Counted from the first letter of the stretch, positions 1,734 through 33,818 are shown. The stretch: 64,000 bases of DNA from an uncultured Enterobacteriaceae bacterium (GCA_964477695.1 CAYZFN010000228.1:10281-74280); one strand, 5' to 3'. A program made the numbers and translations. The notes: generated by a model not told the origin, from the sequence alone.

Positions 1734-1951
1734 TGCCCGAGCCGATGGAAGCCCGCGTCCGCGAGGCCACCGTGAACCTGAGCGCCGTGGACGGCGAATC
1801 GCTGCTCAGCCCGCAGCTCCTGGCCCGCGTCGTGTCGGCAGTGCTCGACGCGCTCGCCGCGCAGCGCGAAGGCGAGGCGAGCCGCCGGCGAGACACGCAC
1901 GTTCCGTGCGCTTGCCAGCACGGCGGCTGCGACGGCGGGGAGAGCGCCTGA
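1733..1951 (+). CDS. Small hypothetical protein (72 aa) inside the eCIS operon
   Basis: The ATG overlaps the tube stop (TGATG 1731-1735) and its own stop overlaps the next ATG (1949-1953). No recognisable domain; supported only by operon packing. Confidence 0.45.
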   Translation: MPEPMEARVREATVNLSAVDGESLLSPQLLARVVSAVLDALAAQREGEASRRRDTHVPCACQHGGCDGGESA

Positions 1952-2643: not shown

Positions 2644-2645
2644 CC

Positions 2646-4669: not shown

Positions 4670-5436
4670 CGCCGCTGACCGTCCCTCCGCCACGGCTCAG
4701 CTGGAAGGACGCCGGCGCGCCGCAGCTCGAGCAACAGGTCGACGTGAAGCTCGCCGCGCTGCGCTTCCCGGACGGCCTGGAAGCCACCGATGCCGAGATG
4801 CAGATCGTTGGCGCCTACGTCTATCGCACCGGCCCGGCCGGCGAGGAGCTGTGGAACGAGGCCGAGCAGCGCTGGGGCGCGGCGCCGGCCGACCTCACGG
4901 CGCTGCCGCCGCTGCCGTTCGTCTACAAGAAGGGCGACCCGCTGCCGTGGCAGGGGACGTTGATTGCCATCGGGCAGAAGGACAAGGACGGCAACGATCG
5001 CTTCGCGAAGGCCGTTGGCAACACGCCGCGCTATCGGTTGCGCGCCCATGGGCGCTTCACGCGCGACGGCGAGGATTACGCGGGGCTGAGCGCGCCCTCC
5101 GCCGACCTCGCCTTCGTCAGCGGCCTCGAGAACCAGCGCTTCAAGGTGAACATGGACCCGGACGATCCGCAGCAGGCGCAGGAGGTGACGCTGCTGCTCA
5201 GGAACTCGGCGCTCGCCTCCGCCGGCCAGGTGAAGATCACCACGAAGAACGGACAGGCGGTCGAGATCGCGAACTTCGACCCCGCCGGCAACCCGCTCGC
5301 CGCCGTGCAGCTCGCCGCCGATGGCTCGATCCATCTGAAGCCGGCGCCGGGACAGAAGATCGTGCTCGACGGCGACCTCGTGGCGCAGCACATCCGCTAC
5401 CTGCCCGCGGCCGGCGGCCCGGCGCTCGACCTCTGA
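4666..5436 (+). CDS. Hypothetical protein (256 aa) between spike and gp25
   Basis: ATG 4666 overlaps the spike stop (ATGA) and the gene ends 1 nt before the gp25 start. Codon usage matches the neighbours. No domain recognised and no PAAR motifs. Confidence 0.5.
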   Translation: MTPLTVPPPRLSWKDAGAPQLEQQVDVKLAALRFPDGLEATDAEMQIVGAYVYRTGPAGEELWNEAEQRWGAAPADLTALPPLPFVYKKGDPLPWQGTLIAIGQKDKDGNDRFAKAVGNTPRYRLRAHGRFTRDGEDYAGLSAPSADLAFVSGLENQRFKVNMDPDDPQQAQEVTLLLRNSALASAGQVKITTKNGQAVEIANFDPAGNPLAAVQLAADGSIHLKPAPGQKIVLDGDLVAQHIRYLPAAGGPALDL

Positions 5437-5437
5437 C

Positions 5438-5845
5438 ATGGACGCGCCGCTCAACCGCGAATTCCTCGGCATCGGCTGGCGCTTTCCGCTGCAGGTGACG
5501 CCCGACGGGCGCATCGCGCAATCGCGCTACGAGCAGAAGATCGAGGAATCGATCGTGCTCATCCTTTCGACCGCGCCCGGCGAGCGGCCGATGCTGCCCG
5601 ATTTCGGCTGCGGCATCCACGACTTCACCTTCGCGCCGAACGACAGCCGCACCGTCGCGCTGATCGTGCATCTCGTGCGCCAGGCGCTGACGCGCTACGA
5701 GCGGCGCGTCGATCTGCTCGACGTGGGCACCGAGGCGAGTCCCGAGGCGCCGAACCTGCTCCTCATCCGCGTCAACTACCGCGTGCGCGCGACCAACGCC
5801 ATCGGCAACCTGGTCTACCCCTTCTACATCAAGGAGAGCCGCTGA
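5438..5845 (+). CDS. GPW/gp25-family baseplate wedge protein
   Basis: 135 aa. GIGWRFPL..., IEESI.LILST.PGERPMLPDFGCGIHDF.F is the classic gp25/GPW lysozyme-like fold signature. Confidence 0.85.
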   Translation: MDAPLNREFLGIGWRFPLQVTPDGRIAQSRYEQKIEESIVLILSTAPGERPMLPDFGCGIHDFTFAPNDSRTVALIVHLVRQALTRYERRVDLLDVGTEASPEAPNLLLIRVNYRVRATNAIGNLVYPFYIKESR

Positions 5846-7905
5846 TGCCGCTGCGCGACGCATTCCCGGTTCTCGACGACCGAACCTACGACGACCTGGT
5901 CGCCGAGATCCGCGCGCGCGTCTCGCGCTACACGCCGGAATGGAAGCCGGCCTGGAACGACCTGAACGACAGCGACCCCGGCATCACGCTGGCGCAGGTG
6001 TTCGCCTGGCTCGGCGAGATGCTGCTCTACCGGATGAACCAGGTGCCGCAGCTCAACTACCTCAAGTTCCTCGAGCTGATCGGCATCGAGCTCGACCCGG
6101 CGCGCGCGGCGCGCGCCGACATCAGCTTCGCGGTGGCGCCGGACTGGACCGAGGACACGGTCGACGTGCCCGAGCGCACGCAGGTGAGCGCGAGCGGCGC
6201 CGACGGCAAGCCGGTCGTGTTCGAGACGCTGCGCCCGCTGCGCGCGATCGCGTGCGAGCTCAGGAGCGTGCAGGGCTACGACGGCGCCCAGCACCGCGAC
6301 GCTACGCCGCGCAACGCCGATCCGGGGCAGGGCTTCCAGCCCTTCGGCGAGCTGCCGCGCGAGGGGGGCGCATTGGTGCTCGGCTTCGCCCGGCAGGGCA
6401 AGCCGTTCCCCGCGGCGACTTTCGAGCTCGGCGTGTGGTGCCTGGACGGCGCATCGCCGCAGGACGGCACGAGCGCGCCACCGCGGGTACAGACCTGCGG
6501 CCCGATCGCCACGCGCGCCTATGCGCCGGCCAGCCTGCAGTGGGAAGGCTGGGACGGCGCGCGCTGGACGCCGATCGACCTGCTGAACGACGAGACGCTC
6601 GCTTTTACGCGGACCGGTTATGTGCGCCTGCGAATTCCGGCGAGCGCGAGCTTCGCGCCGGACTACGTCGGCACGTACGACCAGGGCGATAAGCTCTTCT
6701 GGCTGCGGGCACGCCTGGTGCGCGCGCAATACGAGCGGCCGCCGCTCGTGCTGGCCGTGCGCATCAACACGGTGCCGGCCGAGCAGGCGCAGACCGTGCT
6801 GAACGAGGTGCTCGGCGGCGCGAACGGTCAGCGCAACCAGAAATGGCAGCTCGCCAATGCGCCGGTCATCGCCGGCACCCTGAAGGTCGAGATCGACGAG
6901 GGGACCGACGAGCGCGCGTGGCAGGTGGTCGACGATCTCTTCGGCGCCGCGCCGAACACCCGGCAGCTCGCGCTCAACCGCGCGAGCGGCGAAGTGCTCG
7001 CCGGCGACGGCGAGAACGGCGCCATTCCGGCAGCCAACCCTTCGAACCCGGACGGCAACGTCGTGGCAGTGCAATACCGCTATGGCGGCGGCGCCGGCGG
7101 CAATGTGCCGGCGAAGGCGATCAAAAACCTGCTCACGGCGGTCGACGGCCTGGACGCAGGCAAGACCGAGAATCCGTTCCAGGCGAGCGGCGGGCTGGGC
7201 GAGGAGCTGCTCAGCGAAGCGGAGCGGCGCGCGCGCCTCTCGCTGCGCGCGCGCGAGCGCGCCGTGACGCCCGAGGATTTCGAGCTGCTTGCCGAGCAGG
7301 CCGGCAACGTGCGCCGCGCCAAGGCGCTGCCGCTCGCACATCCCCAGTTTCCTGATACCCAGGTGCCGGGCGCCATCACGGTCATCGTCGTGCCCGACGA
7401 CACGCCGCCGCAACCGCCGGGCGCAGCGCCCGCCGAGCCTACGCTGGAGGACCTGATCGGCGCGCCACCCACGCCGAGCGACGGCTTGCTGCGTACGGTC
7501 TGCGAATACCTGGACGCGCGGCGCCTGCTGACTACCGAGGTGTACGTGGTCGCGCCGGTTTACGTGCCGCTCAAGCTGTACGTGCAGGTCGTGGTCAAGG
7601 ACGACGCCGATCCGGGTGCGACGAAGCAGGCGGTGGAAATCGCGCTCGCCACGTACCTGCATCCGCTGAAAGGCGGCGACGACGGCGAGGGCTGGCCTTT
7701 CGGCGGCGCGCTGCGCTATTCGAAGATCGTGCAGCGCGCCTTCGTGGACGGCGTGGACAGCGTGCCGCAGCTCAAGCTCACGCTCGACGGCACGGAGCAG
7801 CCCGAGTGCCGCGACGTGCCGCTCAGGGCCCATGCGTTGCTCGACGTGGTGGAGCTCGAGGTGGAAACGCTCACGCTCGATGAATACGCGGAGACATCGC
7901 CTTGA
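5845..7905 (+). CDS. Baseplate J-like / gp6-like protein (Afp11-type)
   Basis: ATG overlaps the gp25 stop (TGATG 5843-5847). The N-terminus YDDLVAEIRARVSRYTPEWKPAWNDLNDSDPGITLAQVFAWLGEMLLYRMNQVP is typical of eCIS/phage baseplate J proteins. 686 aa. Confidence 0.85.
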   Translation: MPLRDAFPVLDDRTYDDLVAEIRARVSRYTPEWKPAWNDLNDSDPGITLAQVFAWLGEMLLYRMNQVPQLNYLKFLELIGIELDPARAARADISFAVAPDWTEDTVDVPERTQVSASGADGKPVVFETLRPLRAIACELRSVQGYDGAQHRDATPRNADPGQGFQPFGELPREGGALVLGFARQGKPFPAATFELGVWCLDGASPQDGTSAPPRVQTCGPIATRAYAPASLQWEGWDGARWTPIDLLNDETLAFTRTGYVRLRIPASASFAPDYVGTYDQGDKLFWLRARLVRAQYERPPLVLAVRINTVPAEQAQTVLNEVLGGANGQRNQKWQLANAPVIAGTLKVEIDEGTDERAWQVVDDLFGAAPNTRQLALNRASGEVLAGDGENGAIPAANPSNPDGNVVAVQYRYGGGAGGNVPAKAIKNLLTAVDGLDAGKTENPFQASGGLGEELLSEAERRARLSLRARERAVTPEDFELLAEQAGNVRRAKALPLAHPQFPDTQVPGAITVIVVPDDTPPQPPGAAPAEPTLEDLIGAPPTPSDGLLRTVCEYLDARRLLTTEVYVVAPVYVPLKLYVQVVVKDDADPGATKQAVEIALATYLHPLKGGDDGEGWPFGGALRYSKIVQRAFVDGVDSVPQLKLTLDGTEQPECRDVPLRAHALLDVVELEVETLTLDEYAETSP

Positions 7906-10157
7906 GCGCCGTGCTGCCGCCGACGACGCTGCCGTGGCGCGTCCCGCTCGTGCCCGAGCCGCCGCACGACCCGACCTCGCTGCTGCTCTCCGGGTGCGTC
8001 GGCCCGCGGCCGGAAATCGGCTGGGCGCTCGGGAAGCTGGACGGCCTCGAGCTCGGCGCCGGCGCGCCGGCGCTGGTGCTCCAGCCCTCGCCGGGCGCCC
8101 TGCGGCGGATGAGCGAGCCATCGGGCAGCTTCGGCGGGCTGCGCATGCCGCTCAACAGCGCCCTGGGTCCGGCGGGCGACGTGTACCTCCTCGATCCCCT
8201 CACCGCGCAGCTCAAGCGCTTCGATCCCTGCGACTGCGCCTTCTCTCCGGTGCCCTGCTTCCTGCCGCACGGCGAGCTGCGCGGCATCGCGATCTGCGGC
8301 GGCGATCTCTACGTCGCCGACGGCAGCCGTGCGCAGGTGCTGCGCTATGCGATGAACGGCTTCCTTGCCCGCGCGGCCCTGCGGCTGCCGCGCGCCGAGG
8401 CGAAGCAGCTCGGCCGGCCCTGGTCTCCGTTCGCCATCGCCTTCGACGGGCGCGGCCGCCTGTACGTGTCCGATCCCCGCAACGTCCGCATCGATGTCTT
8501 CGACGCGCAGGGCCGCTGGCGCGGCGCGCACGCAACCAGTGCGCCGCCCTGGCTGCTCGCGCTCGATTGCCGCGATCGCCTGTACGCGGTGCTTGCGCAG
8601 GTCGGCGAGCTGGCGCTCGCCACGCCAAACGACGGCTATGGCGCGCGCTGGAGCTGGTCGGCCGACGTCGCGGGTCTCGCCATCGTCGTTCTGGAAGACG
8701 CATTCCGTACGCTCGACGAACGCACCGTACGGCCGGCGGACTTCGCCCGGCCCCCCATGCCGATCGACGCGCGCGGCGAGCTGCACCTGCCTTGCACCCA
8801 GGCCGGCGCGGGCGGCGAAGCGCTGTTCGACGCGCGCGGCTTGCGGCTTCGCCCGGAAAGCCGCGCGCTCGAGGAGATCTACCTGCGAAAGGGCGAATAC
8901 CGCAGCCGCGCGCTCGACTCCGGCATCGAAGGCTGCCAATGGCATCGCGTCGAGCTGCGCGGCGCGCTGGCCGACGGCTGCGCCGTGCGCGTGCGCACGT
9001 TGTCCGCGCATGTCGAGCTCGGTGAACAAGACCTCGCGCTGCTGCCCGAAGAGGCGTGGAGCGAAGGCGGCTGGGCCGCCGCCATGGATGCCGACGGTCG
9101 CTGGGACTGCCTGGTGAAGAGCCCACCCGGTCGCTTTCTCTGGCTGCGGCTCGGGCTGTCCGGGGACGGCCATGCCACGCCGGCGCTCGACGCGGTAATG
9201 CTCGAGTTTCCGCGCCTCGGTCTGCGCCGCTACCTGCCCGCGGTGTTCGGCGCCGACCCCGCGGGCGCAGATTTCACCGATCGGTTCAGCGCGCTCTTCG
9301 ACACCACGCTGCGCTCGATCGAGCGCCGCCTCGACCGGCTCGCCGCGCTGTTCGATCCGCGCTCGGCGCCCGCCGAGCGCAAACCGGGCCGGCCGGATTT
9401 CCTGAGCTGGCTCGCTTCGTGGATCGGGCTGGCGCTCGCTCGCGACTGGCCCGAGGCGCGCCAACGCCGCTACGTCCGGGAAGCTGCGCGTCTGTACTGC
9501 CTGCGCGGTACACCGCTGGGCCTGTGGCGCCAGCTGCTGCTGTTCCTCGGCCTCGACCAGCCGCGCTGCCCCGCCGAGCGGCCGGTGCGCCGTTGCATTC
9601 CGGTTCCCCTGAATTGTGCTTCGCGGCCTGCGAAGACCGCGGTGGCGCCGCCGCCGCTGATTCTCGAGCACTTCAAGCTGCGCCGCTGGCTGCACGCCGG
9701 GCGCGGCCGGCTCGGCGAGGACTCGATGCTCTGGGGACAGAAGATCGTCAACCGCACGCAGCTCTCGGCGGGCGCGCAGGTCGGCGCCACCACGCTCACC
9801 AGCCGGCCGGACCCGTTACGCGACCCTTTCCACGTCTACGCGCACCGCTTCAGCGTATTCGTCCCGGCCCGCGTCGAGAAGAGCGACGGCGAGCGCCGGG
9901 CGCTCGAGCAGCTGCTCGCGCGCGAGGTGCCGGCGCACACGCTCTACGACGTGCGATACGTAGAGCCGCGCTTCCGCGTCGGCGTGCAGGCGATGCTCGG
10001 CCTCGACAGCGTGATAGCGCGCACGCCGAAGGACGTCTTCCTCGGCCAGAGCACGCTCGGCCGGGGATCGCTGCTCAGCCCGCCGCCGGCGCGGCGCGGC
10101 GGCCCCAGGCTGCGCGTGGGCGAGGCGCGCGTCGGCAGCACCACGGTGCTCACATGA
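7902..10157 (+). CDS. P2 gpI-like / gp7-like baseplate protein with N-terminal NHL-like repeats (Afp12-type)
   Basis: Starts at TTG 7902 (overlaps the J stop) or in-frame GTG 7911. NHL-like repeats: GDVYLLDP, GDLYVADGSRAQVLRY, GRLYVSDPRNVRIDVFD. The block FLSWLASWIGLALARDWPEARQRRYVREAARLYCLRGTPLGLWRQL matches the phage tail protein I family. Confidence 0.75.
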   Translation: MSAVLPPTTLPWRVPLVPEPPHDPTSLLLSGCVGPRPEIGWALGKLDGLELGAGAPALVLQPSPGALRRMSEPSGSFGGLRMPLNSALGPAGDVYLLDPLTAQLKRFDPCDCAFSPVPCFLPHGELRGIAICGGDLYVADGSRAQVLRYAMNGFLARAALRLPRAEAKQLGRPWSPFAIAFDGRGRLYVSDPRNVRIDVFDAQGRWRGAHATSAPPWLLALDCRDRLYAVLAQVGELALATPNDGYGARWSWSADVAGLAIVVLEDAFRTLDERTVRPADFARPPMPIDARGELHLPCTQAGAGGEALFDARGLRLRPESRALEEIYLRKGEYRSRALDSGIEGCQWHRVELRGALADGCAVRVRTLSAHVELGEQDLALLPEEAWSEGGWAAAMDADGRWDCLVKSPPGRFLWLRLGLSGDGHATPALDAVMLEFPRLGLRRYLPAVFGADPAGADFTDRFSALFDTTLRSIERRLDRLAALFDPRSAPAERKPGRPDFLSWLASWIGLALARDWPEARQRRYVREAARLYCLRGTPLGLWRQLLLFLGLDQPRCPAERPVRRCIPVPLNCASRPAKTAVAPPPLILEHFKLRRWLHAGRGRLGEDSMLWGQKIVNRTQLSAGAQVGATTLTSRPDPLRDPFHVYAHRFSVFVPARVEKSDGERRALEQLLAREVPAHTLYDVRYVEPRFRVGVQAMLGLDSVIARTPKDVFLGQSTLGRGSLLSPPPARRGGPRLRVGEARVGSTTVLT

Positions 10158-10194: not shown

Positions 10195-12660
10195 ATGGGC
10201 TGCATGATCTGCCACCACGAGCACTCGGCGCTCGAGACCTGCGCGCAATGCGAGTTCGACGCTTTCGTGCGCAACCACTTCTTCACCGGGAAGATGATGG
10301 GCGCCGCCGAGTTCGCCACCGAGACGCTCTATCACTCGGACAAGATGCGCCATCACAACGTGCGCCTGCACGGCTCCGGCGTGGTGTGCGGGCTCAAGGT
10401 GCACCAGCATCCTTCCGAGGAATGCCGCAAGCGCTATGTCGTCGTCTCGCCCGGCTCGGCGCTCGACTGCTGCGGTCGCGAGATCCTGGTGGCGCAGGAA
10501 GAAATCGTCGACGTCGCGAAGAACCCTGCGCTCCTGAAGGCGCTCGACGCGGACCGGGCGCACAGCGTAACGCGGCTGCACACGCTGCAGCTCTGCGTCG
10601 CCTATCACGAATGTCCGACCGAGGATGTGCCGGTGCTCTACGACGAGTGCGGCTGCGACGACACGAAGTGCGCGCCGAACCGCATCCTCGAGTCGTTCCG
10701 CTTCGACGTTCTGGTCGACCCGCCACTGCCCGCCGCGGACCTGGTCGGCCGGGCGCCGCTCGGGGTATTCGTCGCCACCGACGAGCACGCGCTCACCGGC
10801 TTCAGCCGCACGAGCAGCTCGGGCAAGGTGCTCGCCGCCGATCCCGGCGCGCCGCTCGACCCTTCAGGCCTCGACGCCGCGAAACCGACGCGCCTCTTCC
10901 TCATCGACACGCGCTTCCGCTCGATGAAGACGCTCGCGTTCAGCGCCGCGCTACGCGCCGCGGCGCTCTCCGCCGACGGCAACTTCGTGTTTGCCGTCAC
11001 CGGCTCGCAGGCGCAGATCTTCAAGGTGGACGACGGCTCGGAGGTCGTTCCCGCCGACGCCACCAAGTTCCAGCTGCCCGCCAGCGCGACCGGGACGCTC
11101 TACGCGGCGGCCGGCAGCGGCGACGACGGCTTCGTCGTCTACTCGGCCGGCGACGGCAAAGCCTATCGCTGGAAAGCCGACGCGACGAACGGCCTCGTCG
11201 AAGCCAACCCGGGTGTAGCGGCGCTCGACGCCGATCTCTCCGGCGTCGTCGCGAGCGCCAACGCCGACACGCTGTACGCCATCACGAGCGCCGGCAAGGT
11301 CAAGCAGTACACGCTCGCCGGCGGAACGAAGGAATTCACCGTCCCTACCGCGCCCGGGGCGCTCGCCACGTTCGCGCTCGGGACCACGGCGAAGCCGCTG
11401 CTCGCGGTCGCGAGCAGCACCGACAAGAAGGTGTACCTCTTCGACCTCGGCACCGCAGCGACCGCGCCCGCCACGACGATCGACGTCGATCGGCCGCCTT
11501 TGCAGCTGGGCGCCACCGGCAGCGGGGACGACGTATGGCTGCACGTGCTCGAGGAAGAGAGCGCCCATCTCTATACACAGGCCGTATCGCTCAAGCCCCT
11601 CGCGACGGGCCTGACCAACCCGGCGCTGCTCGGCGCGCCGCGCCTTGCCGAGGACGGCGTGCGCTCGATCGTGCTCGTCTTCGAGGACGGCCAGGATGCG
11701 GTGGTGCATCCCGCCGCGCTCGCCGAGAGCGACTGCGCCGATCTCCTGTGGAAGCAGCTGGAGGGCTGCCCTGCGTGCGAGCTGCCCGACTGCGTGGTGC
11801 TCGCGACGATCGCGAACTACCAGTCGGGCATGGCGCTCGACAACGCCGCCATCGACAACCGCCTCGGCCGCCGCGTCGTTGCGAGCACCGCGACGCTGCA
11901 GGCCTGGCTGCAGTGCCTGCAGCTGAAAGGCGGCATTCCCGGTCCGAAGGGCGATCCCGGCACGCCGGGCGCGAACGGCACCAATGGGACGAATGGCACG
12001 AACGGCAGCGACGGGAAAGACGGCAAGGACGGGAAGGATGGCAAGGACGGGAAGGACGGCAAGGACGCCGTCCTCACGACCTCGGTCACGGTCGGCGATT
12101 GCTCGACGCAGCCCAAGCTGGAGCTCGACGCGAACGGCGAGCTGAAGCTCACCCTGCCGAAGTGCTGCGACGGCGACCTGACGCACGTCTGCGACATCAA
12201 CTGGAAACACGCCGATCAGCTCGACGGCAATGTCGTAAGGCAGCTCATCGTCGCGTTCGACAATCCGCTCCATCCACAGTATGTGACGCAGGCGATGCTC
12301 AGGCAGAGCTTCATCGTCGAGACGCAGCACACGCAGCTCATCGACGACCCGGCGAATCTCAGCGTGAACTGCTGGTGCCAGCTGATCGGCGAATACAGCG
12401 CGTTCGACCTCAACACGCCGTGCAAGATCGCCGACGGCGTCAAGACCGGCAGCACGATCGTCCGGGCGATCGCTTTCACGCCTTCGCCCGGATTCCAGAA
12501 GGGCAGGCTCTATCGGGTGCGCCTGCTCGGCGACTTGATCGTCGATGCGAACAGCAAGCGCGCCGTCGATGCCAATCACCTCCCGCCGTATGTGCCGGCG
12601 CGCAAGAGCGGCGACTGCATCGAAGGCGGCACCTTCCTGAGCTGGTTCCAGGGGATATGA
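10195..12660 (+). CDS. Fibre-like protein 1: Cys/His cluster + shared N-module + propeller-like repeats + collagen-like stalk + C-terminal domain
   Basis: ATG 10195 preceded by GGGAGGGAAG. N-module RNHFFTGKMMG...RLHGSGVVCGLKV is shared with the next two ORFs. Has 15 G-X-Y triplets (11932-12066). Sits after the baseplate genes. Confidence 0.7.
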   Translation: MGCMICHHEHSALETCAQCEFDAFVRNHFFTGKMMGAAEFATETLYHSDKMRHHNVRLHGSGVVCGLKVHQHPSEECRKRYVVVSPGSALDCCGREILVAQEEIVDVAKNPALLKALDADRAHSVTRLHTLQLCVAYHECPTEDVPVLYDECGCDDTKCAPNRILESFRFDVLVDPPLPAADLVGRAPLGVFVATDEHALTGFSRTSSSGKVLAADPGAPLDPSGLDAAKPTRLFLIDTRFRSMKTLAFSAALRAAALSADGNFVFAVTGSQAQIFKVDDGSEVVPADATKFQLPASATGTLYAAAGSGDDGFVVYSAGDGKAYRWKADATNGLVEANPGVAALDADLSGVVASANADTLYAITSAGKVKQYTLAGGTKEFTVPTAPGALATFALGTTAKPLLAVASSTDKKVYLFDLGTAATAPATTIDVDRPPLQLGATGSGDDVWLHVLEEESAHLYTQAVSLKPLATGLTNPALLGAPRLAEDGVRSIVLVFEDGQDAVVHPAALAESDCADLLWKQLEGCPACELPDCVVLATIANYQSGMALDNAAIDNRLGRRVVASTATLQAWLQCLQLKGGIPGPKGDPGTPGANGTNGTNGTNGSDGKDGKDGKDGKDGKDGKDAVLTTSVTVGDCSTQPKLELDANGELKLTLPKCCDGDLTHVCDINWKHADQLDGNVVRQLIVAFDNPLHPQYVTQAMLRQSFIVETQHTQLIDDPANLSVNCWCQLIGEYSAFDLNTPCKIADGVKTGSTIVRAIAFTPSPGFQKGRLYRVRLLGDLIVDANSKRAVDANHLPPYVPARKSGDCIEGGTFLSWFQGI
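11932..12066 (+). repeat. Collagen-like G-X-Y coding repeat, including six tandem 9-nt GKD units
   Basis: In-frame GIP GPK GDP GTP GAN GTN GTN GTN GSD (GKD)x6. nt 12013-12066 are six near-identical GGB-AAR-GAY units. Confidence 0.9.
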
Positions 12661-12700
12661 AGCGCACAGCAACCCCACCTTCCGTCATGGAGAACTGAAA

Positions 12701-14461
12701 ATGCCCACGGACCTCTACGCCGCGCCTCCGGTCGTGTCCCCCGGGCGCAATCCGCAGCCGGTGCCGCCCAAGCGCCCCGACCCGTGCGCCGACGACACAC
12801 CGGTGTGCCCGGCGTGCGGCGGATTGCAGTGCCTGTGCCGGCCGCGCTTCTTTCCCGGGCAGCTGCTCACCGACGAGGACCTGAATCGGCTCGAGCGCTA
12901 CGTGGTCGACAAGAACAAGCTGCATGCGCGCTACCTGCACGGCTGGGGCGTGGCATGCGGCCTCGAGGTGGTGTGCGATCCGTGCACCACGAGCAACGTG
13001 GTGGTGCGCACGGGCTACGCGCTCTCGCCCTGCGGCGACGACATCATCGTCTGCAAGGACCAGTCGGTGAACGTGTGCGAGCTGATCGACCAGTGCCGGC
13101 CGCAGACCGGCGTGGTGTGCGACCCGCCCTATAACCAGCCGCCGCGCGAGTGCCGCGACGGCACCGAGCCCTGGGTGCTCGCGATCTGCTACGACGAGCG
13201 GCCCACGCGCGGCATCACGGCGCTCACCGGCAGCACCGACACGGCGTGCTGCTCGAGCTGCACCTGCGGCGGCTCGGGATCGTGCGGCTGCGGCGGCTCC
13301 GCGAAGAAGGCTTCTGCCAAGGTATCGGGCAAAAAGGCGGCGTACCAGCCCCAGTGCGAGCCGACGCAGATCTGCGAAGGCTACCGTTTCGTCGCGTACA
13401 AGCGCCCGCCGCAAACGCCCGCCCAGCTGCCTCCGGGCCGTGCGGCCGCGGGCAACGTGGACCTGATCTTCGCCTGGATGTATGCCAACCGGGCGAAGTT
13501 CGGCCCGCTGCTCGAGCGGGTGCTCTGCTGCGTCACCGCGGCGCTCGAGCTGCAGGCCTCGTTCAGCGACCGCGGCAAGTACACGAGCGGCCAGGATGCC
13601 GCGAACGCCTACGTCGACTACCTCGATGCCCTGCGCGATTTCGCGGCGAGCTTCGCCCTGCACAACTGCACGTTCCTGGACAAGCTCACGACGGAAACGG
13701 CCGACCTCACGCCGCAGGTCGAGAACCTGCGCAAGGCGGCCGCGCTCGACGAGACGCAGAAGGCGCTGCTCACGAGTGCCCTGCAGCGCCTCGACTACAA
13801 CCTGTTCGACCTGATCGCCGAGTGCTTCTGCTCGGCGCTGCTGCCCGCCTGCCCGCCGCCCGCTCCGGACAACTGCGTGCCGCTCGCCCTCCTCACGGTA
13901 CGTACCCGCGACTGCCACGTGGTGCAGATCTGCAACTGGGAAGCCCGCAAGCTGCTCATCACCTGGCAGACCGTCGGCTACTGGCTCTCCTGGCTGCCGT
14001 GGCAGCGGCTGCGCCTGTGGATCTCGCGGCTCTGCTGCGCCGACACGCCGCGCCGCACGATCATCTGGCCGCTCATGCTGATCATCGGCATGGTGCTCAA
14101 CCAGGCGCGCGCGATGCAGGTGCGCATGGCGGCGACGGCAAACGAAGCGCCGTTGAAAGAAGCCGTGGCCGCCGACAACCTCATGGCGCATCTCGCGCAG
14201 GGCTTCGACAGCCTGCGCAGCGGCGAGGACCCGGCAGCGCCGGAATGGGCTTCACTGCTCGCGCGCTTCGCCGACGGCAGCGCGCTCTCGTCGCTCGCCG
14301 GGCCCACGGCGGTAACCCAGGCGCAGCTCGAGGCGTTGAAGGGCCAGCTCGGCCTCGACGAGCTGCGCCAGCAGGTCGAGGCGCTGCAGGGCACGCTGAA
14401 GGAATACAAGACGAACGTCGATGGCCTGCGCAACTTCATCGTGAGAGGGCCGGGAGGCTGA
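12701..14461 (+). CDS. Fibre-like paralogue 2: shared N-module, Cys-rich segments, hydrophobic stretch, C-terminal coiled coil
   Basis: ATG 12701 with GGAGAA upstream. RPRFFPGQLLTDEDLNRLERYVVDKNKLHARYLHGWGVACGLEV aligns with ORFs 10195 and 14463. Also CCSSCTCGGSGSCGCGG, WPLMLIIGMVL, and a C-terminal heptad-like QLEALKGQLGLDELRQQVEALQGTLKEYK. Confidence 0.6.
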   Translation: MPTDLYAAPPVVSPGRNPQPVPPKRPDPCADDTPVCPACGGLQCLCRPRFFPGQLLTDEDLNRLERYVVDKNKLHARYLHGWGVACGLEVVCDPCTTSNVVVRTGYALSPCGDDIIVCKDQSVNVCELIDQCRPQTGVVCDPPYNQPPRECRDGTEPWVLAICYDERPTRGITALTGSTDTACCSSCTCGGSGSCGCGGSAKKASAKVSGKKAAYQPQCEPTQICEGYRFVAYKRPPQTPAQLPPGRAAAGNVDLIFAWMYANRAKFGPLLERVLCCVTAALELQASFSDRGKYTSGQDAANAYVDYLDALRDFAASFALHNCTFLDKLTTETADLTPQVENLRKAAALDETQKALLTSALQRLDYNLFDLIAECFCSALLPACPPPAPDNCVPLALLTVRTRDCHVVQICNWEARKLLITWQTVGYWLSWLPWQRLRLWISRLCCADTPRRTIIWPLMLIIGMVLNQARAMQVRMAATANEAPLKEAVAADNLMAHLAQGFDSLRSGEDPAAPEWASLLARFADGSALSSLAGPTAVTQAQLEALKGQLGLDELRQQVEALQGTLKEYKTNVDGLRNFIVRGPGG

Positions 14462-14462
14462 T

Positions 14463-17117
14463 ATGGGCGCGCAAGACCAGCGGCCGCGGTTCTACGAAGG
14501 CCAGTACCTCGGCGCACAGGACCTGGCGGCGATCGTCGACTACCTGCGCGGCGCCGATGCGCGGCATGCGCTAGGCGCGCACACCTGGGGCATCGCGATC
14601 GGGCTCTACCTCATCGAGCGCCCGGCACCGGGCGGCGCAGACCGGCGGGAGGTGATCCTCACGCCGGGTGTCGCCTGGGACGGCTTTGGTCGAGCGATCG
14701 TGTGCACCCGCCCGACGCGCCTTGCCGAGGACCTGTTCGCCGCCATTCCCTACGACGCGCTGCTCGACGGTGCGAGCGCCAAGGGGCGCGGCGTACGCGT
14801 GTGGCTCAATTACAAGGAGACCGCGGCTCAGCTGCCTGCGCCCGGCTTCGAGAGCTGCAGCGACCAGGACCAGAACGCGCGCGTTGCCGAGAGCTTCGAC
14901 TTCGTCGTCGGCTCCTATTCCCCGGGACCGAACCGCCAGGGCAACGTCGCCATCGGCACCGAGACCCTGCAAGCCGAGGAGGCGCTGACGCGCTTCGACG
15001 GCGCGGCGCTGCCGCTATACGACGCGTCGGTGCCGCACCAGAGCTTTCCCACCGCCAAGGTGCCGCGCTGGCTTGTGCCGGTGGGCTACGTACGCTGGAT
15101 CGCGCGCGACGGCGACCTCGGCTACTTCGTCTCGCGCGACGGCGCGCCCGAGTACCGGCTCAAGGACTGCACGCGGGCTTTCCGCCGCTACATCGGCGCG
15201 GTGGTCGAGAACGTGGTCGCCGCCGACGGGGCAATCGTGCTGCAGCGGCGCGACAAGGATCCGCGCGGGCGCCACAAGCTCGCCTGGCTGCTGAACTGCG
15301 GACGCAGCGCCGACGAGCTGCTCGCCGACCTCGCCTGGGTCGAGGGCAACCTGCGCGTGGTCGGCGACGCGAAGCTCGCGCGCGGCAAGCTGCTGATGCG
15401 CGATGCCGACGGCGACGACGAAGGCGTGCCGATCTATCTCGACCGCGTCGGCGACGATCCGCAAATCGACTCGAAGAAGTGCTGCGAGGACCTCGACTCG
15501 TCGGCCGGTGGACCTTCCGCCGACGACAAGGCGAAGCAGCCGCGCGAGTTCCGCGCCGCGATCGGCAAGAAGGGCCAGAACGAGCACCGCTGGATCGTCG
15601 GCCCGGAGGTCGCGGGAGCGACGCCACAGGATCCGCCGACGCTCGCGCCGCGCTTCGTGGTGCTGAGCGGCACCGGCCACACCGACAACAAGGACAGCGA
15701 GGGCCGCGCCGGCGTCAACACGCGCGACCCGAACGCGGCGCTCGAGGTGAAGGGCGACTGGAACAAGGAGGATGGCGCGGTCCGCGTCGCCGGCACCCAG
15801 CCGACGATCCGCTACGAGGGCGGCGCGGACGTCGACAACCTGAAGTGGCTCACGCAGATCACGACGCAGCCGAAGGGCGCCTTCTGCATCGCCTACCGCA
15901 AGGCACCGGCGAACCCCGGCGACGATCCGACCTGGCCGGCGGTGGTGAACGTGCTGTCCAGCCCGGAGCGCGTGGGTATCCGCTCGGGCGATCCGAAGGC
16001 GCCGCTTGCCGTGAAGGCCGACGGCGACGCGCAGGACCTGGTCGCTTTCGAGGACAACGCCGGCGGCACGCAATGGAAGATCCGCCTCAAGCCGGACGCC
16101 AACCACACCGGCCTCACCTTTAGCGATCCCGCAAGCGGCGCCAACGCCGTCTTTCTCAAGCCGGGCGGCGACGTCGGCATCGGCACGCTCGATCCCCAGG
16201 GACGGCTTAGCGTCTACGGCAAGGTGCAGCCGGCGCAGGGCATGCTTTCCCTCTTCACCGCCTCGGCCGACATCCAGTACGACGGCGGCAACGACCAGGT
16301 TTTCATCTTCCAGCAGAGCCCGGCGGGCATTACGTCGTTCCTTGGCGCAAAGGTAGGAATCGGCGGCACCACGCCGTACGCCGCGCTTTCCGTGCGCGGC
16401 GCGGGAACGACCGAGGAGCTGGTGAGCTTCGAGAATGCGGCCGGCACGACCCGGTGGCACATCAACCAGAACCTTGCGGCGGCGCCGGTCAAGGGCTTCA
16501 ACATCGCCGAGACGGGCGTGGCCGACGGGCGGCTGTTCATCAGGCTGGGCGGCGACGTAGGCATCGGCACCTACGATCCGAAGGACCGGCTGCACGTCGC
16601 GGGAAACTTCCTGCGCGTCAACGGCGCGGGCGGCGAGCAGGCCTATATCGGCGGCGACGGCTCCTCGAACGTCTACGGCCAGGACGTGCAGATCGGCAGC
16701 GCGAAGTCCGGCGTGGGCAACGTGCACTTCTGGAACCGCGCCGACAGCGACTGGATGTGGCTGAGCTGCAAGCAGATAAGCCATATCTCGGATGCCCGGC
16801 ACAAGACGCACGTCGAGACGCTTTCGGGCGCGCTCGCCCACGTGACGCGGCTGCGTGGAGTGCGGTTCAAGTGGAAACCAGCGCGAGGATCGGACGCGCC
16901 GTCCCGGCCAGGGCTGGGCGTCATCGCACAGGAAGTCGCCGAGGTATTGCCCGAGCTCGTGCACGAGATGCGCGGCGACCTGACCGTGTCGTACGCCGAA
17001 ATGGTGCCGCTGCTGATCGAAGCGGTGAAAGAGCTGAAAGGCCAGGTCGACGAGCTGCGCGAGGAAGTGAAGCACCTTTCCGACGCCGCGCCAAAGAAGA
17101 AGGCGCCGCGCGGATAA
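14463..17117 (+). CDS. Tail fibre protein with C-terminal endosialidase-type intramolecular chaperone (peptidase S74-like) domain
   Basis: ATG 14463 after GGAGG. N-module RPRFYEGQYLGAQDL...HTWGIAIGL. Internal fibre repeats (GGDVGIGTLDPQGRLSVYG, GGDVGIGTYDPKDRLHVAG). The C-terminal 109 aa (16788-17114) reads SDARHK...LRGVRFKWK...GVIAQEV..V.PELV......V.Y..MVPLLIEAVKELK, which is the S74 autochaperone signature. Confidence 0.8.
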   Translation: MGAQDQRPRFYEGQYLGAQDLAAIVDYLRGADARHALGAHTWGIAIGLYLIERPAPGGADRREVILTPGVAWDGFGRAIVCTRPTRLAEDLFAAIPYDALLDGASAKGRGVRVWLNYKETAAQLPAPGFESCSDQDQNARVAESFDFVVGSYSPGPNRQGNVAIGTETLQAEEALTRFDGAALPLYDASVPHQSFPTAKVPRWLVPVGYVRWIARDGDLGYFVSRDGAPEYRLKDCTRAFRRYIGAVVENVVAADGAIVLQRRDKDPRGRHKLAWLLNCGRSADELLADLAWVEGNLRVVGDAKLARGKLLMRDADGDDEGVPIYLDRVGDDPQIDSKKCCEDLDSSAGGPSADDKAKQPREFRAAIGKKGQNEHRWIVGPEVAGATPQDPPTLAPRFVVLSGTGHTDNKDSEGRAGVNTRDPNAALEVKGDWNKEDGAVRVAGTQPTIRYEGGADVDNLKWLTQITTQPKGAFCIAYRKAPANPGDDPTWPAVVNVLSSPERVGIRSGDPKAPLAVKADGDAQDLVAFEDNAGGTQWKIRLKPDANHTGLTFSDPASGANAVFLKPGGDVGIGTLDPQGRLSVYGKVQPAQGMLSLFTASADIQYDGGNDQVFIFQQSPAGITSFLGAKVGIGGTTPYAALSVRGAGTTEELVSFENAAGTTRWHINQNLAAAPVKGFNIAETGVADGRLFIRLGGDVGIGTYDPKDRLHVAGNFLRVNGAGGEQAYIGGDGSSNVYGQDVQIGSAKSGVGNVHFWNRADSDWMWLSCKQISHISDARHKTHVETLSGALAHVTRLRGVRFKWKPARGSDAPSRPGLGVIAQEVAEVLPELVHEMRGDLTVSYAEMVPLLIEAVKELKGQVDELREEVKHLSDAAPKKKAPRG

Positions 17118-17120
17118 CGC

Positions 17121-18584
17121 ATGCTGCAGATCGACCGCCTGTCGCTCCAGGTGCGCAGCGCGGCCGCGCCGGAGCGTGCGGAGCGCCTCGCGCGTCGTCT
17201 GCGCGATGCAGCGGTATCCGGCATCGAGCGCAACCGCATTGCCGGCGCCCCGCCCGGCTCGCCCGCCTATCTGTTCGTCGATCGCCTTGCCTTCGCCTGC
17301 ATGGTGAGCAGCGACTGGGACGACGCGACGATCGGCGCGGCGGTGGCACGCGCGCTCGCTGGTGCACTCGCGCGGAGCCTCGAGCTCGAGGAGACCGTGG
17401 CGTTCCGGGACCGCACCGAGCTCCTCGCCGCGTTCTATTCCGCGCTGGCGGAGGGACGCGCCTGGGAGCGCTGGTGGTTCGAGGAGTTCGATGGGCTGAA
17501 GGCGCTTGCGGCTTCCGCCGCGCTGCGCACCTCGCTGATCAACGAGCGCGACGACGGCGTCGCTGCGCTCGCGCGGCTCACGGAACACTGCTTTTGTAGC
17601 GTAATGGCCGTACTCAGTGCGGGCGACGCCAGGCGTCTGCTCGAGTGGTTCACGGCGCGGCATGCGAGCGCGCGCGTCCCTGTGCTCTCTCTCTGGAAGG
17701 CGTCCGCTGCACTCGTCGCGAATTCAAGCAACGCAGTGGCAACCCTGCGCGCAGTTCTCGCGCTCGAGCGCACCACGCCGGGCGCCGCTGGCCGCGAGAC
17801 GCTGCGCGCGTTGCAGGCTATGGCGGCGTTGCGGACAGCGGCGCTGCGCGGCGAGCTGGATCTGCCGCGGCACGCCGGCTCGGCCATCGCAATCGATCTG
17901 CGGGACGCGGCCGCGAAGCTTGCCATTGGGAGCGAGTGGCTGGAAGCCCTTGGTGAAGACGACGCCGGGGCGATCTCGGACGAGCTCATTTGCCTCGCGG
18001 CCGGCGCGCCCCCTTCGGAGACGGCATCGGAACAGGCCAATCCGGTAAGGATGCGCGAGCGCCTCTTCACGCCGCACGGCGGCGCGTTCGTGCTGCTGAA
18101 GGCGCTCGACTGGCTCGGCTGGCCGAGGTCATGGGCTTCTTCCGGCCCTGGCCGGGACGAATTGGTCCGCGCGCTCTCTTGGGCGCTCGCGGTGCGCGCG
18201 CTCGTACCGCACGGCGCGCGCCAAGCGCTGAGTGATCCCGTGTTGCATGCGGCGTTCGGCCTCGAGCAGCCGCTCGCGGTCCTGAAACGCAATCGCAGGG
18301 AAGCAACCCAGGCGTTGAACCAGCGTTCTATCGTGAAAGCGGCCGACGAGCTGCTCGCCCAGTTCGCGAGCCGGGTTCCAGGCCTCGCGGGAGCGTCGGC
18401 CGGATACCTGCGGCGCAATGCGCTCGCGCTGCCCGCGAGCGTCGAGCTGCACGGCGAGCGCTGCGTGGTGCGGCTCGGCCGTGCGCCGCTGGATGTGCTC
18501 CTTGTCCTCGCCGGCGCGAAAACCGGGCGCATCGCGCTGCCCGGCGGCCCGACCCTCGAGCTGCGCGCGGAGGGTGGAGCGTGA
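17121..18584 (+). CDS. Ala/Leu/Arg-rich hypothetical protein (487 aa); positional candidate for the Afp14/Pvc14-like tail-length determinant
   Basis: ATG 17121, 3 nt after the fibre stop; its stop overlaps the GTG of the ATPase gene (GTGA 18581-18584). Composition suggests a helical protein. The call is positional only. Confidence 0.45.
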   Translation: MLQIDRLSLQVRSAAAPERAERLARRLRDAAVSGIERNRIAGAPPGSPAYLFVDRLAFACMVSSDWDDATIGAAVARALAGALARSLELEETVAFRDRTELLAAFYSALAEGRAWERWWFEEFDGLKALAASAALRTSLINERDDGVAALARLTEHCFCSVMAVLSAGDARRLLEWFTARHASARVPVLSLWKASAALVANSSNAVATLRAVLALERTTPGAAGRETLRALQAMAALRTAALRGELDLPRHAGSAIAIDLRDAAAKLAIGSEWLEALGEDDAGAISDELICLAAGAPPSETASEQANPVRMRERLFTPHGGAFVLLKALDWLGWPRSWASSGPGRDELVRALSWALAVRALVPHGARQALSDPVLHAAFGLEQPLAVLKRNRREATQALNQRSIVKAADELLAQFASRVPGLAGASAGYLRRNALALPASVELHGERCVVRLGRAPLDVLLVLAGAKTGRIALPGGPTLELRAEGGA

Positions 18585-20758
18585 ACGCACCGCTGAACGT
18601 GCAAGCAGCGCATGACGGTCCGCGCGCCGCGCGCGCCGCGCTCGACGCCGAGCTCGCGCGGCTCGACCTGCTCCTGCAGCGCGAGATCCTGCGCCTGCGC
18701 GCGCGCTACGAGCTGACGCTCGACGAGTTCCGGGGCCTTTACATCAGCGACCGCGCCGTAGACGAGCTGATCCGCGCCGCGCGCCGCGGCGACGCCGATC
18801 CGAGCGCCGAGGCGCTGACCGAGCGCGCGCGGGCCATCCTCGGCGAGCGCGAGCTCGCGCCCTTCGACGCCGCCACCCCGTGGGCCGCCCTGGCGCGCGC
18901 ACTCTGCCTGTCGAACGCCGAGCGGGATCTGGTGCTGCTGGCGCTCGCGCCCGAGCTCGAGCCGAAATACGAGACGCTGTTCGCCTATCTCAACAACGAC
19001 GTCACCCGCAAGCTCGGCACCGCGGAGCTTGCCGGGCGGCTGTTCGCCGACTCGGTGGAGGAGCGCGTCGCGCTGCGCGGCTGCCTCGCGCCGGACGCGC
19101 CGCTGATGGCGCTCGGCATCCTCGAGTTCGCGCCGGCGACACGCGATGCGCCGCGCGCGCAGCGCGGGCTGCGCCTCGCAGCGCCGCTCGTCGACTGGCT
19201 GCAGGGATTGCCGTACGTCTCGGAGCGGCTGGTGGGCATCGCGCGCCTCTCGCGCCAACAGAGCACGGTTTCGCTGCCGTCGCCCCACGCGGCGTACTAC
19301 GCGGCCGGGGACGTCTTTCCGGTACTGGTTGTAACGGCTTCCAGCGCCGAGGAAGCGCAGGACGACGCCGATCGCGGCCTCACCGTTGCCGGCGAATCGG
19401 TGCTGATGCTCGACCTGCGCGCGCTCCGCAGCGCGCAAGCCCCTATGGAGATCGGCTGCGCAGTGGAGCAGATGTGCGCGCTCTTCGGCCTGACGCTGCT
19501 TGCCGCGCCGCTCGATGCCGTGTTCGACGCCGAGGGACGCCCGCTAGAGGCGCCCGCGGCCGCGATGGAGCGCCTGTGTGTGCGGGCACGGCGCGTGGTG
19601 CTGGCCGGCGGCGCATCGCTGAGATGGCGGGAAGTGGTGGGCCGCCAGTCACGCGCGGCGCGCGCCGTGGAGCTGCGTCTGCCGCCGAGCGACGCGCTGC
19701 AGCGCGCCGCAGCCTGGCGCGAGACGCTCGGGCCGCACGCGGCCGATTTCGACGTCGAGGCGCTCGCCGACCGCTTCGCCCTCAGCGTGACGCGCATCGG
19801 CATCGCCGCGCAGCGCGCTTTCGATCGCGCCGGCTTCGATGGTCGCGCCGCGCCGACGCAGCAGGAGCTCTTCGAAGCGGCACGCGCCGCCTCGGCCGAG
19901 GGGGCCGAAGGTGTCGTGCGGCAGCTGCCGACACCCTTCTCCTGGGACGACCTGGTGGTGCCGCCGAACGTGCGCCAGCGGCTCGACGATGTGGTGCGCG
20001 CGATCGAGCTGCGGCCGAAAGTCCTCGACCAGTGGGGCTTCGCGCGCCGCACGGCGGGCGCGCGCGGCGTGAAGGTCATGTTCGCCGGCGCGAGCGGTAC
20101 CGGCAAGACCATGGCCGCGGCGATCGTTGCCCGCGCCCTCGGCCTGGAAGTGCACCGCGTGCAGCTCGCTTCCGTGGTCTCGAAGTACATCGGCGAGACC
20201 GAGAAGAACCTCGACCGCGCCTTCGACGCGGCAAACCGCTCCAACGCGGTGCTGTTCATCGACGAGGCCGACGCGCTGTTCGGCAAGCGCTCCGAGGTGA
20301 AGGACGCGCACGACCGCTACGCCAACGTCGAGACCGCGTACCTGCTGCAGAAGATGGAGGACCACGACGGCATCGTCATCCTCGCCACCAACCTCGCCGA
20401 CAACATCGACGAGGCCTTCTCGCGGCGCATGCATTTCGTGGTCGAGTTCCCGCTGCCCGATGCGGCGAGCCGCGAGCGCCTGTGGCGCGGCATGTTCCCC
20501 GCCGAAGCGCCGCGCGCCGCGAACGTCGATTTCCCTTTCCTCGCGCGCCAGTTCACGCTGGCCGGCGGCGACATCCGCAACATCGTGCTGGACGCGGCTT
20601 ACGCCGCGGCGCAGCGCAGCGCACCGATCGCAATGGGCGACCTGCTGCGCGCCGTGGCGCGCCAGCACGAGAAGCGCGGCAAGGTTCCGGGCGCGAGCGA
20701 GTTCCGCGAGTACTTCGATCTGCTCGGTAAGGCCGCCGATGTCGAACGGCAAGACTAA
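18581..20758 (+). CDS. AAA+ ATPase, Afp15/Pvc15-like (eCIS assembly/cargo-loading ATPase)
   Basis: Walker A GASGTGKT, Walker B VLFIDEADALFGKR, then ANVETAYLLQKMEDHDGIVILATN and FSRRMHFVVEFPLPD. Has a long N-terminal extension as in eCIS ATPases. Confidence 0.9.
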   Translation: MNAPLNVQAAHDGPRAARAALDAELARLDLLLQREILRLRARYELTLDEFRGLYISDRAVDELIRAARRGDADPSAEALTERARAILGERELAPFDAATPWAALARALCLSNAERDLVLLALAPELEPKYETLFAYLNNDVTRKLGTAELAGRLFADSVEERVALRGCLAPDAPLMALGILEFAPATRDAPRAQRGLRLAAPLVDWLQGLPYVSERLVGIARLSRQQSTVSLPSPHAAYYAAGDVFPVLVVTASSAEEAQDDADRGLTVAGESVLMLDLRALRSAQAPMEIGCAVEQMCALFGLTLLAAPLDAVFDAEGRPLEAPAAAMERLCVRARRVVLAGGASLRWREVVGRQSRAARAVELRLPPSDALQRAAAWRETLGPHAADFDVEALADRFALSVTRIGIAAQRAFDRAGFDGRAAPTQQELFEAARAASAEGAEGVVRQLPTPFSWDDLVVPPNVRQRLDDVVRAIELRPKVLDQWGFARRTAGARGVKVMFAGASGTGKTMAAAIVARALGLEVHRVQLASVVSKYIGETEKNLDRAFDAANRSNAVLFIDEADALFGKRSEVKDAHDRYANVETAYLLQKMEDHDGIVILATNLADNIDEAFSRRMHFVVEFPLPDAASRERLWRGMFPAEAPRAANVDFPFLARQFTLAGGDIRNIVLDAAYAAAQRSAPIAMGDLLRAVARQHEKRGKVPGASEFREYFDLLGKAADVERQD

Positions 20759-33645: not shown

Positions 33646-33818
33646 GATGTTCCCCTTTCCGCGATTACTCTAGAACTTTGGCGCTCGCAAACCTTGTGAC
33701 GGCCGGCACAGCCGCGGCCCGTTTTAATGCCGAGGTCGGAACGAAGAAAATTCGCGAAGAGGCTCGCGTTTAGGGGTGTGCAACGACTGCGCCGAGTCCT
33801 GCCTTATCCCGGCGTCCG

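Follow-up and report, generated by a model that had tools for sequence, protein, structure and literature searches.

A predicted fixed-order triad of eBAP3-type baseplate proteins in a Tail_P2_I-type extracellular contractile injection system

In the extracellular contractile injection systems (eCIS), five N-terminal "eCIS baseplate anchor protein" (eBAP) domains have been defined by Nachmias, Wang, Feng, Jiang and Levy (Nat Commun, January 2026; PMC12923769). One of them, eBAP3, is a shoulder-like domain of ~200 amino acids (aa) catalogued in 1420 genes and associated with loci that have a Tail_P2_I gene, the product of which the authors liken to TssG of the type VI secretion system (T6SS). 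Attachment through eBAP3 is described as loop-mediated, with several loop sites modelled per Tail_P2_I protein and up to four fibres. Of the loci with fibres, 23.4% had more than one fibre gene. The eBAP3-associated domains given in the catalogue include S74 and collagen, and attention was drawn to fibres in which a beta-propeller and a collagen helix are combined with a C-terminal domain called "TNFR-like", the figure example being WTVH01000027.1_19 of Aromatoleum buckelii. Supplementary Data 5 of that work, which gives eBAP3 clusters, genomes and genes, enters WTVH01000027.1_19, _20 and _21, together with other loci of three consecutive genes. Here we have analysed a 64,000-nucleotide stretch of DNA from an uncultured Enterobacteriaceae bacterium (GCA_964477695.1 CAYZFN010000228.1:10281-74280; the whole stretch is called the window), in which three consecutive open reading frames (ORFs), P1, P2 and P3, share one N-terminal module.

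Two further described proteins serve for comparison. All3314 (Cis19) is the crown protein of the Anabaena thylakoid-anchored contractile injection system (tCIS), where six trimers with only pseudo-C3 symmetry sit on the baseplate. Alg19 of AlgoCIS is a homotrimer with a shoulder resembling those of TssK and of lactococcal phage receptor-binding proteins; three central helices of this shoulder grip the C-terminal loop of Alg12, as in TssK-TssG, and the fibre serves both to bind target cells and to stabilise the state before firing (bioRxiv 10.1101/2025.10.08.681156).

The three ORFs (821, 586 and 884 aa; Table 1) exist as originally predicted. Their third-position guanine-plus-cytosine (GC) content is 0.89-0.92, as in real genes of this window of ~70% GC, and the same lengths were obtained from independent gene calls on metagenome contigs; the exact P2 sequence was matched on metagenome contigs only. 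Pairwise BLASTP aligned P1 21-190 with P2 42-251 (E 1.6e-10), P1 26-203 with P3 7-178 (E 1.3e-9) and P2 47-95 with P3 7-55 (E 5.7e-8). The similarity itself was therefore confirmed, but not its supposed length of 90-100 aa, since the module covers ~170-200 aa in all three proteins. Its most conserved stretch, RPRFFxGQxL..DL....Y...K...H, is common to the three shoulders. The distal parts are unrelated, as had been claimed, with no significant cross-matches within the window or among the 73 triads described below.

The proteins were then assigned to families. All three matched the N-terminus (positions 3-144) of NCBIfam NF053767 (CIS13_fam, "CIS13 family contractile injection system protein"), P1 over positions 3-132 (E 3.3e-22) and P3 over positions 5-144 (E 5.7e-8). 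Membership of this equivalog was rejected, the scores being 79.3, 34.0 and 32.4 bits against a curated cut-off of 370 and the match being confined to positions 3-144 of 392; P1, P2 and P3 thus have the N-terminal domain of NF053767 without being members of the family. The closest published relatives are the A. buckelii genes, with P1, P2 and P3 being 48, 54 and 45% identical to WTVH01000027.1_19, _20 and _21, respectively, over most of each length (P1 aa 8-818; P3 aa 1-622). There too, three consecutive eBAP3 genes follow a Tail_P2_I gene directly, and WTVH01000027.1_19 has the same propeller, collagen and C-terminal domain architecture as P1. One of the related loci examined below lies on the plasmid of the A. 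buckelii strain of WTVH01000027.1. By orthology to these published genes, P1, P2 and P3 are predicted eBAP3 fibres. The shared module has the length of the ~200-aa shoulder-like N-terminal domain (170-200 aa), its fold being supported by the P2 model and, for P1 and P3, by homology only. The locus is an eCIS with toxin cargo and a baseplate of the Tail_P2_I/TssG-like type, and the triad lies directly 3' of the Tail_P2_I gene.

That gene encodes Cis12, which matched NCBIfam CIS12_fam over aa 388-727 (E 7.5e-39), TIGR02242 (E 1.1e-21) and Pfam Tail_P2_I; its aa 440-551 were also matched by PDB chain 9gtp_E. P1 starts 38 nt past the Cis12 gene. Based on the literature on related systems, Cis12 is the probable docking partner of all three shoulder domains. 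It also has a long N-terminal extension (7902-9050, aa 1 to ~380) bearing NHL-type beta-propeller repeats, with aa 126-217 matched by the NHL repeats of TRIM71. Thus, the wedge protein itself has a possible binding propeller.

We give a probability of about 80% to the reading that P1, P2 and P3 are paralogous, baseplate-attached eCIS proteins with eBAP3 shoulders, the mechanism proposed below included. The shoulder appears related to those of Cis19, Alg19, T6SS TssK and the lactococcal phage receptor-binding proteins. The original prediction that a single baseplate-docking module is reused on three distal ends holds up, given the homology to the baseplate-proximal N-terminal domain of Cis19 and the publication of the orthologues as eBAP3 fibres. 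The module had not been recognised as a named family, and here the prediction needs correcting: it is an already characterised adaptor domain, eBAP3 in the 2026 scheme, with its N-terminus covered by CIS13_fam and with relatives in the Cis19, Alg19 and TssK shoulders, so it is not novel.

P2, alone among the three, matched All3314 (PDB 7B5H) at aa 12-77 in phmmer (E 7.7e-5), and a profile of 55 module sequences matched the All3314 N-terminus with E 2.9e-9, residues 12-86 being aligned at most. The first ~75 aa of the shoulder are thus homologous, and the P2 model best matches the Cis19 shoulder and the region following it. Cis19 differs in its size (1476 aa), its bulky shaft and flexible distal parts, and in being encoded by one such gene per locus; in the 2026 scheme it is eBAP4, on an Afp11/12-type baseplate without Tail_P2_I (PMC12923769). 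Membership of Cis19/eBAP4 was rejected: All3314 12-86 alone aligns, Pfam gave no PKD or Ig matches, and Tail_P2_I is present. Alg19, a homotrimer with an N-terminal shoulder holding a wedge loop, offers the best experimental guide to the likely working of the module. It differs in being a single fibre that also has a neck as well as middle and Ig-rich domains, and sequence similarity is marginal at most: the 55-sequence profile weakly matched the trimeric chain 9wt0_a (E 0.028), possibly that of Alg19.

With TssK and TssG (PDB 6N38, 5MWN), the triad shares the shoulder and helical neck in P2 and a TssG/Tail_P2_I-like, loop-bearing wedge partner; the T6SS also has more than one TssK trimer per wedge. 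In contrast, the C-terminal head of TssK binds the TssLM membrane complex, whereas P1 and P3 bear fibre domains of extracellular type. TssK membership was rejected, since no Pfam or NCBIfam TssK model matched P1, P2 or P3 at E<=0.1, the likeness is at the level of the fold and for P2 only, and the locus is of eCIS type. Afp13 and Pvc13 (eBAP1) occupy the corresponding operon position and likewise serve in general as eCIS fibres, but they differ in having a ~50-aa helical anchor, an adenovirus-type shaft and another baseplate type (PMC12923769); they were rejected because no Av_adeno_fibre or related Pfam model matched and the triad has the ~200-aa N-terminal module instead. Likewise, none of the three proteins matched PF20129 (eBAP5/DUF6519) at E<=0.1, nor any phage-fibre family in the Pfam and NCBIfam scans.

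Conservation of the triad was assessed by scanning one genome per species. This gave 479 loci with a relative of the module, of which the best 80, ranked on the P1 shoulder, were examined; from the 479 loci and the published catalogue, the family is large. Exactly three module ORFs in constant order were present in 72 of the 80 loci (73 of 81 with the window), and most loci with fewer than three end at a contig edge. The whole neighbourhood, from the sheath to the AAA+ ATPase, is syntenic across related loci, and the Cis12 gene lies directly 5' of the triad in all 80. The closest genomes are from Burkholderiales, Duganella, Rubrivivax and Aromatoleum, and the loci are spread over Proteobacteria, Acidobacteriota, Chloroflexota, Actinomycetota, Gemmatimonadota, Verrucomicrobiota, Armatimonadota and Myxococcota, which argues that the triplication is old. 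The shoulders fall into three orthologous classes, with the best match in the same class in 219 of 219 cases and identities of 49-58% within a class versus 27-35% between classes. The distal parts follow the same classes (90-97% of within-class pairs match, cross-class pairs never, in the 73 triads). Such a fixed-order orthologous triad does not look like freely reshuffled fibres and fits three non-equivalent baseplate positions. From these sequence comparisons, the set is best described as an old, fixed triad with variable tips. Two loci depart from the three-gene rule. A Gemmatimonadaceae locus (L037) has two module ORFs although its 673 kb contig is intact there, and another (L028) has four because its class-2 gene is split into two pieces, possibly by a frameshift.

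The conservation bears on an alternative in which P1, P2 and P3 are competing fibres that alternate at one docking site, so that mixed particles hedge across targets. The same conserved helix motif in all three shoulders would suit such competition, and so would the published view of rapid fibre evolution and acquisition, with multi-fibre loci as niche adaptation (PMC12923769). However, strict co-occurrence in a fixed order in many phyla is not what alternation predicts, nor is the persistence of three shoulder classes with no homogenisation between them, and the published modelling offers several loop sites on each Tail_P2_I protein. We therefore consider competition for one site unlikely. 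The main text of the catalogue paper treats multi-fibre loci as fast-evolving, whereas a fixed-order triad, class-specific shoulders and conserved cysteines are not described there. Earlier publications had described the shared module and its docking role as well as multi-fibre loci of this kind. What is new here, and of modest novelty, is the apparently ancient, fixed triad with class-specific shoulders and a Cys-rich, possibly TssK/crown-like middle member; the discovery value is modest because the domain and the nearest orthologues had been reported.

AlphaFold2 (AF2) monomer models of P1 and P2 were built from alignments of 30 and 43 rows and had a mean predicted local distance difference test score (pLDDT) of 64-65 (64 for P2). 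In the P2 model, aa 271-380 form a helical bundle with a pLDDT of 81-97, followed by a beta-hairpin and then the C-terminal helices. The best PDB matches in Foldseek were three Cis19 chains (E 1.7e-5, probability 0.97), followed by six TssK entries (6n38, 5mwn, 6giy, 5m30 and 5y0e among them; E from 2e-3, probability 0.85-0.90) in which shoulder and neck were aligned. When a class-2 profile was run against PDB sequences, All3314 alone was found and TssK was not reached. The neck is alignable in 70 of 72 orthologues and aa 260-440 in ~70 of 72, the C-terminus in only ~25. Pfam and NCBIfam scans revealed no adhesin-like domain in P2, which, as modelled, looks like Cis19 or TssK in its shoulder and helical neck and not like an adhesin. 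The idea that one particle could carry up to three receptor specificities is accordingly plausible for P1 and P3 only, and does not extend to P2.

A short hydrophobic helix in the C-terminal part of P2 (aa 453-467, 14057-14101; IIWPLMLIIGMVL) is preceded by charged residues and a conserved LCC motif. Only the closest relatives, from Beta- and Gammaproteobacteria, retain this helix, and its length falls short of that of a standard transmembrane helix. Further on, aa 552-581 form a terminal coiled-coil-like helix, the coiled-coil pattern of which is widely kept. A canonical transmembrane helix was looked for by Kyte-Doolittle hydropathy (19- and 15-residue windows), and none is conserved across the 73 class-2 proteins; many of the apparent transmembrane matches in the orthologues correspond to the buried CxCxALLP helix.

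These observations are relevant to a second alternative, in which P2 anchors the system to a membrane in the manner of Anabaena Cis13 or TssK, so that it stays, tCIS- or T6SS-like, on the producer's own membrane without being released. The modelled TssK/Cis19-like fold of P2 would agree with anchoring, Anabaena Cis13 anchors its system by a C-terminal transmembrane helix, and the hydrophobic helix reaches transmembrane-like hydropathy in two of the proteobacterial relatives that keep it (2.17 in L004 and 1.68 in L009). In P2 itself, however, the segment has only ~13-15 hydrophobic residues and peaks at 1.50 against a threshold of 1.6 (19-residue window), and it is absent from most class-2 orthologues. 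Collagen, a lectin-like propeller and an S74 domain, together with eCIS_core/DUF4157 toxins, point instead to a released particle. No T6SS membrane-complex family was matched by the 16 locus ORFs scanned (4-30430), the ORFs beyond 30430 having been partly scanned. Taken together, a membrane-bound system seems distinctly improbable.

P1 combines its shoulder with propeller-like repeats and a collagen stalk, as originally predicted. Residues ~205-470 are all-beta in the AF2 model (pLDDT ~80-90) and gave WD40-type propellers as top Foldseek PDB matches (E ~1e-10). The stalk belongs to Pfam Collagen (PF01391; 29.6 bits versus a cut-off of 27.2), with 15 uninterrupted G-X-Y triplets at aa 580-624. 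A sequence search of the PDB with P1 returned collagen-like noise only. The propeller is common to 53 of 72 orthologues and the C-terminal domain to ~40; the latter, called "TNFR-like" in fibres of this architecture (PMC12923769), is likely the receptor-binding tip. At the DNA level, the collagen stalk corresponds to tandem repeats with periods of 9 and 18 (GTN and GKD triplets) at 11968-12067, which could grow or shrink by slippage and so alter stalk length.

In P3, both the fibre repeats and the S74 domain claimed at first were recovered, as four VGIGT-type repeats and a Peptidase_S74 match (PF13884; E 3.3e-15, 56.6 bits versus a cut-off of 22) with SDARHK at aa 776-781. The S74 region also matched PDB 7dc3 (MYRF; E 1.4e-6), the sole match in the PDB sequence search with P3. 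Residues 160-320 are common to ~70 of 72 orthologues and the S74 end to ~19 of 72.

The cysteines of the shoulder differ between the classes. At >=90% conservation, the class 2 (P2) shoulder has ~20 Cys; class 1 (P1) has 11 conserved Cys (10 invariant and C134 at 0.81) and four conserved His, and class 3 (P3) a single conserved Cys. This gradation indicates that the shoulder can fold without the cysteines, which probably contribute metal sites or disulfides. In the main text of the eBAP catalogue paper (PMC12923769), the words cysteine, zinc and disulfide are absent. A Cys/His cluster had been proposed ahead of the module in P1 and P2. In P2, C36, C39, C44 and C46 are indeed conserved at >=96% in class 2, whereas invariance in P1 is confined to C16 and C19 (CxxC), with C3, C6, H7, H8 and H10 kept in <=34% of orthologues. 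A metal-binding Cys/His cluster at the P1 N-terminus was therefore rejected, the CxxC standing and the His-rich part not. No Cys/His cluster precedes the module in P3 or in class 3. The class-1 orthologues align starting at M4 of P1, so that P1 may in fact begin with the ATG of position 10204 and not at 10195; this start would drop one Cys from the proposed metal cluster. As for the P2 CCSSCTCGGSGSCGCGG cluster, taken at first for a distal feature, the three-way alignment places it as an insertion inside the shared module.

Collagen triple helices and S74 chaperone folds are each built of three like chains. Together with the homotrimer models published for the A. buckelii orthologues (pLDDT 85-88; PMC12923769), the collagen triple helix of P1 and the S74 chaperone of P3 suggest that each protein would homotrimerise through its own shoulder. 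A P1:P2:P3 heterotrimer (1:1:1), its shoulder of pseudo-threefold symmetry sending three different arms from one socket, can be set aside as very improbable, for although exactly three adjacent and possibly translationally coupled paralogues are kept together (P3 starts 2 nt past the P2 stop) and Cis19 trimers are only pseudo-C3, neither a collagen nor an S74 domain can form without three like chains, the orthologue homotrimer models are confident, and the catalogue has many eBAP3 loci with just one or two genes (PMC12923769). All three alternatives are less likely than homotrimeric eBAP3 proteins attached to the baseplate.

In the mechanism that we propose for such homotrimers, the three central helices of the trimer, bearing the RPRFFxGQxL..DL....Y...K...H stretch, would clamp a Cis12 loop by analogy with TssK-TssG and Alg19-Alg12. 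Since the shoulders have been class-specific from before the loci diverged, the three classes probably occupy three different sites per wedge, together, in a fixed geometry and without competition. P1, with its lectin-like beta-propeller, flexible collagen stalk and C-terminal knob, would be a target-binding fibre, and so would P3, folded by an S74 chaperone that, following family precedent, may cleave itself at Ser776; the tips of both would vary between lineages. P2 would be a structural crown or TssK-like element with a possible part in baseplate stabilisation or in relaying the trigger. Homology, domain content, synteny and orthology are demonstrated by the comparisons above, whereas the trimer state, the docking site, simultaneous occupancy and the role of each protein are inferred.

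A wider proposal, which we put forward tentatively, joins these elements. The triad would be an ancient, obligatory three-part set and no assortment of interchangeable fibres, derived from one triplication before this eCIS lineage spread across phyla, with site-specific shoulders on Cis12, three different trimers on each wedge and 18 trimers per particle; P2 would be metal- or disulfide-stabilised and TssK/crown-like, not a receptor binder, and could brace the baseplate or couple binding to firing. If so, the lineage would be an evolutionary bridge from T6SS baseplates, with two TssK trimers per TssG, to fibre-bearing eCIS.

Several points weigh against the reading of the triad given here. Docking site, stoichiometry and simultaneous occupancy are argued from analogy, and the role of P2 is a guess from the absence of adhesin domains. 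Parts of the shoulder fall below a pLDDT of 50 in both AF2 models. Against Cis19 and TssK, Foldseek gave low TM-scores of 0.12-0.23, for which reason the P2 fold match relies on ranking and probability and is regarded as supporting evidence, not proof. The 80 examined loci represent one large clade within the eBAP3 systems, and among 52 catalogue loci sampled, 26 had one eBAP3 gene, 16 had two, eight had three and two had four (PMC12923769).

The distinction has practical consequences. Efforts are under way to engineer eCIS particles into programmable devices for protein delivery, and what such particles bind is set by their fibres. For retargeting, it matters whether three different shoulder-anchored trimers sit on a Tail_P2_I-type baseplate as a fixed set or just one fibre that can be exchanged, as this decides which gene to swap, which to spare and how many specificities a particle can have. 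In practice, three "hypothetical" genes can be annotated as eBAP3-type baseplate proteins.

Table 1. Coordinates in the window of the triad, its domains and the neighbouring genes
Feature	Position	Strand	Basis or remark
P1+P2+P3 triad	10195-17117	+	
P1, predicted class-1 eBAP3 fibre: shoulder, beta-propeller, collagen stalk, C-terminal domain	10195-12660	+	
P1 shoulder module, aa 16 to ~200, incl. invariant CxxC (C16, C19)	10240-10794	+	NF053767; BLASTP to P2/P3
P1 beta-propeller, ~aa 205-470	10807-11604	+	AF2 model; Foldseek
P1 collagen triple-helix stalk, aa 580-624	11932-12066	+	Pfam Collagen; triplet count
P1 C-terminal Cys-containing domain, aa 640-821	12112-12657	+	in ~40/72 class-1 orthologues
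P2, predicted class-2 eBAP3 protein: Cys-rich shoulder, helical neck, variable helical/coiled-coil C-terminus	12701-14461	+	
P2 CxxCx4CxC prefix (aa 36-46) and shoulder (aa 47 to ~235), Cys-rich insertion at aa 180-200	12806-13405	+	
P2 helical neck, aa 256-380, conserved CxCxALLP motif	13466-13840	+	AF2; Foldseek
P2 C-terminal helices, aa 434-581	14000-14443	+	AF2 model
P3, predicted class-3 eBAP3 fibre: Cys-poor shoulder, conserved middle, VGIGT repeats, S74 chaperone	14463-17117	+	
P3 shoulder module, aa 7 to ~180	14481-15002	+	NF053767; BLASTP to P1/P2
P3 VGIG(T)xDPxxxLxV repeats, four copies, aa 504-712	15972-16598	+	regex search
P3 Peptidase_S74 intramolecular chaperone, aa 776-834	16788-16964	+	Pfam PF13884
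Sheath	4-1101		
CIS_tube/LysM protein	1906-2643		
VgrG-related spike	2337-3878		
gp25	5438-5845		
Baseplate_J/Cis11	5845-7905		
Cis12, Tail_P2_I/TssG-like baseplate wedge protein, N-terminal NHL-type propeller	7902-10157	+	CIS12_fam; TIGR02242; Tail_P2_I
487-aa ORF	17121-18584		no Pfam/NCBIfam match
AAA+ ATPase, Cis15-like	18581-20758		
1285-aa protein	22771-26628		eCIS_core (DUF4157, PF13699) near N-terminus; C-terminal Ntox4 toxin domain
1265-aa protein	26633-30430		eCIS_core (DUF4157, PF13699) near N-terminus

According to the Pfam and NCBIfam scans, positions 4 to ~30430 form a single co-directional contractile injection system locus (Table 1; the gene starts are approximate and some of the tabulated ORFs overlap). 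Downstream of the structural genes, the 1285-aa and 1265-aa proteins are probably the cargo toxins of the eCIS. The 487-aa ORF following the triad is kept in the same position in 65 of the 80 related loci and, judged by this position, could be a Cis14-type length-determining protein. Two other ORFs gave no family match: that at 3979-5436 has relatives in only 20 of the 80 loci, and that at 20760-22769 is outside the flank compared across the related loci. Just past the second toxin gene, at 30001-34000, the GC content drops from ~0.70 to 0.60-0.62, and ordinary metabolic genes follow (a beta-lactamase-fold protein and a pyruvate:ferredoxin oxidoreductase). The eCIS island seems to have its downstream edge here.

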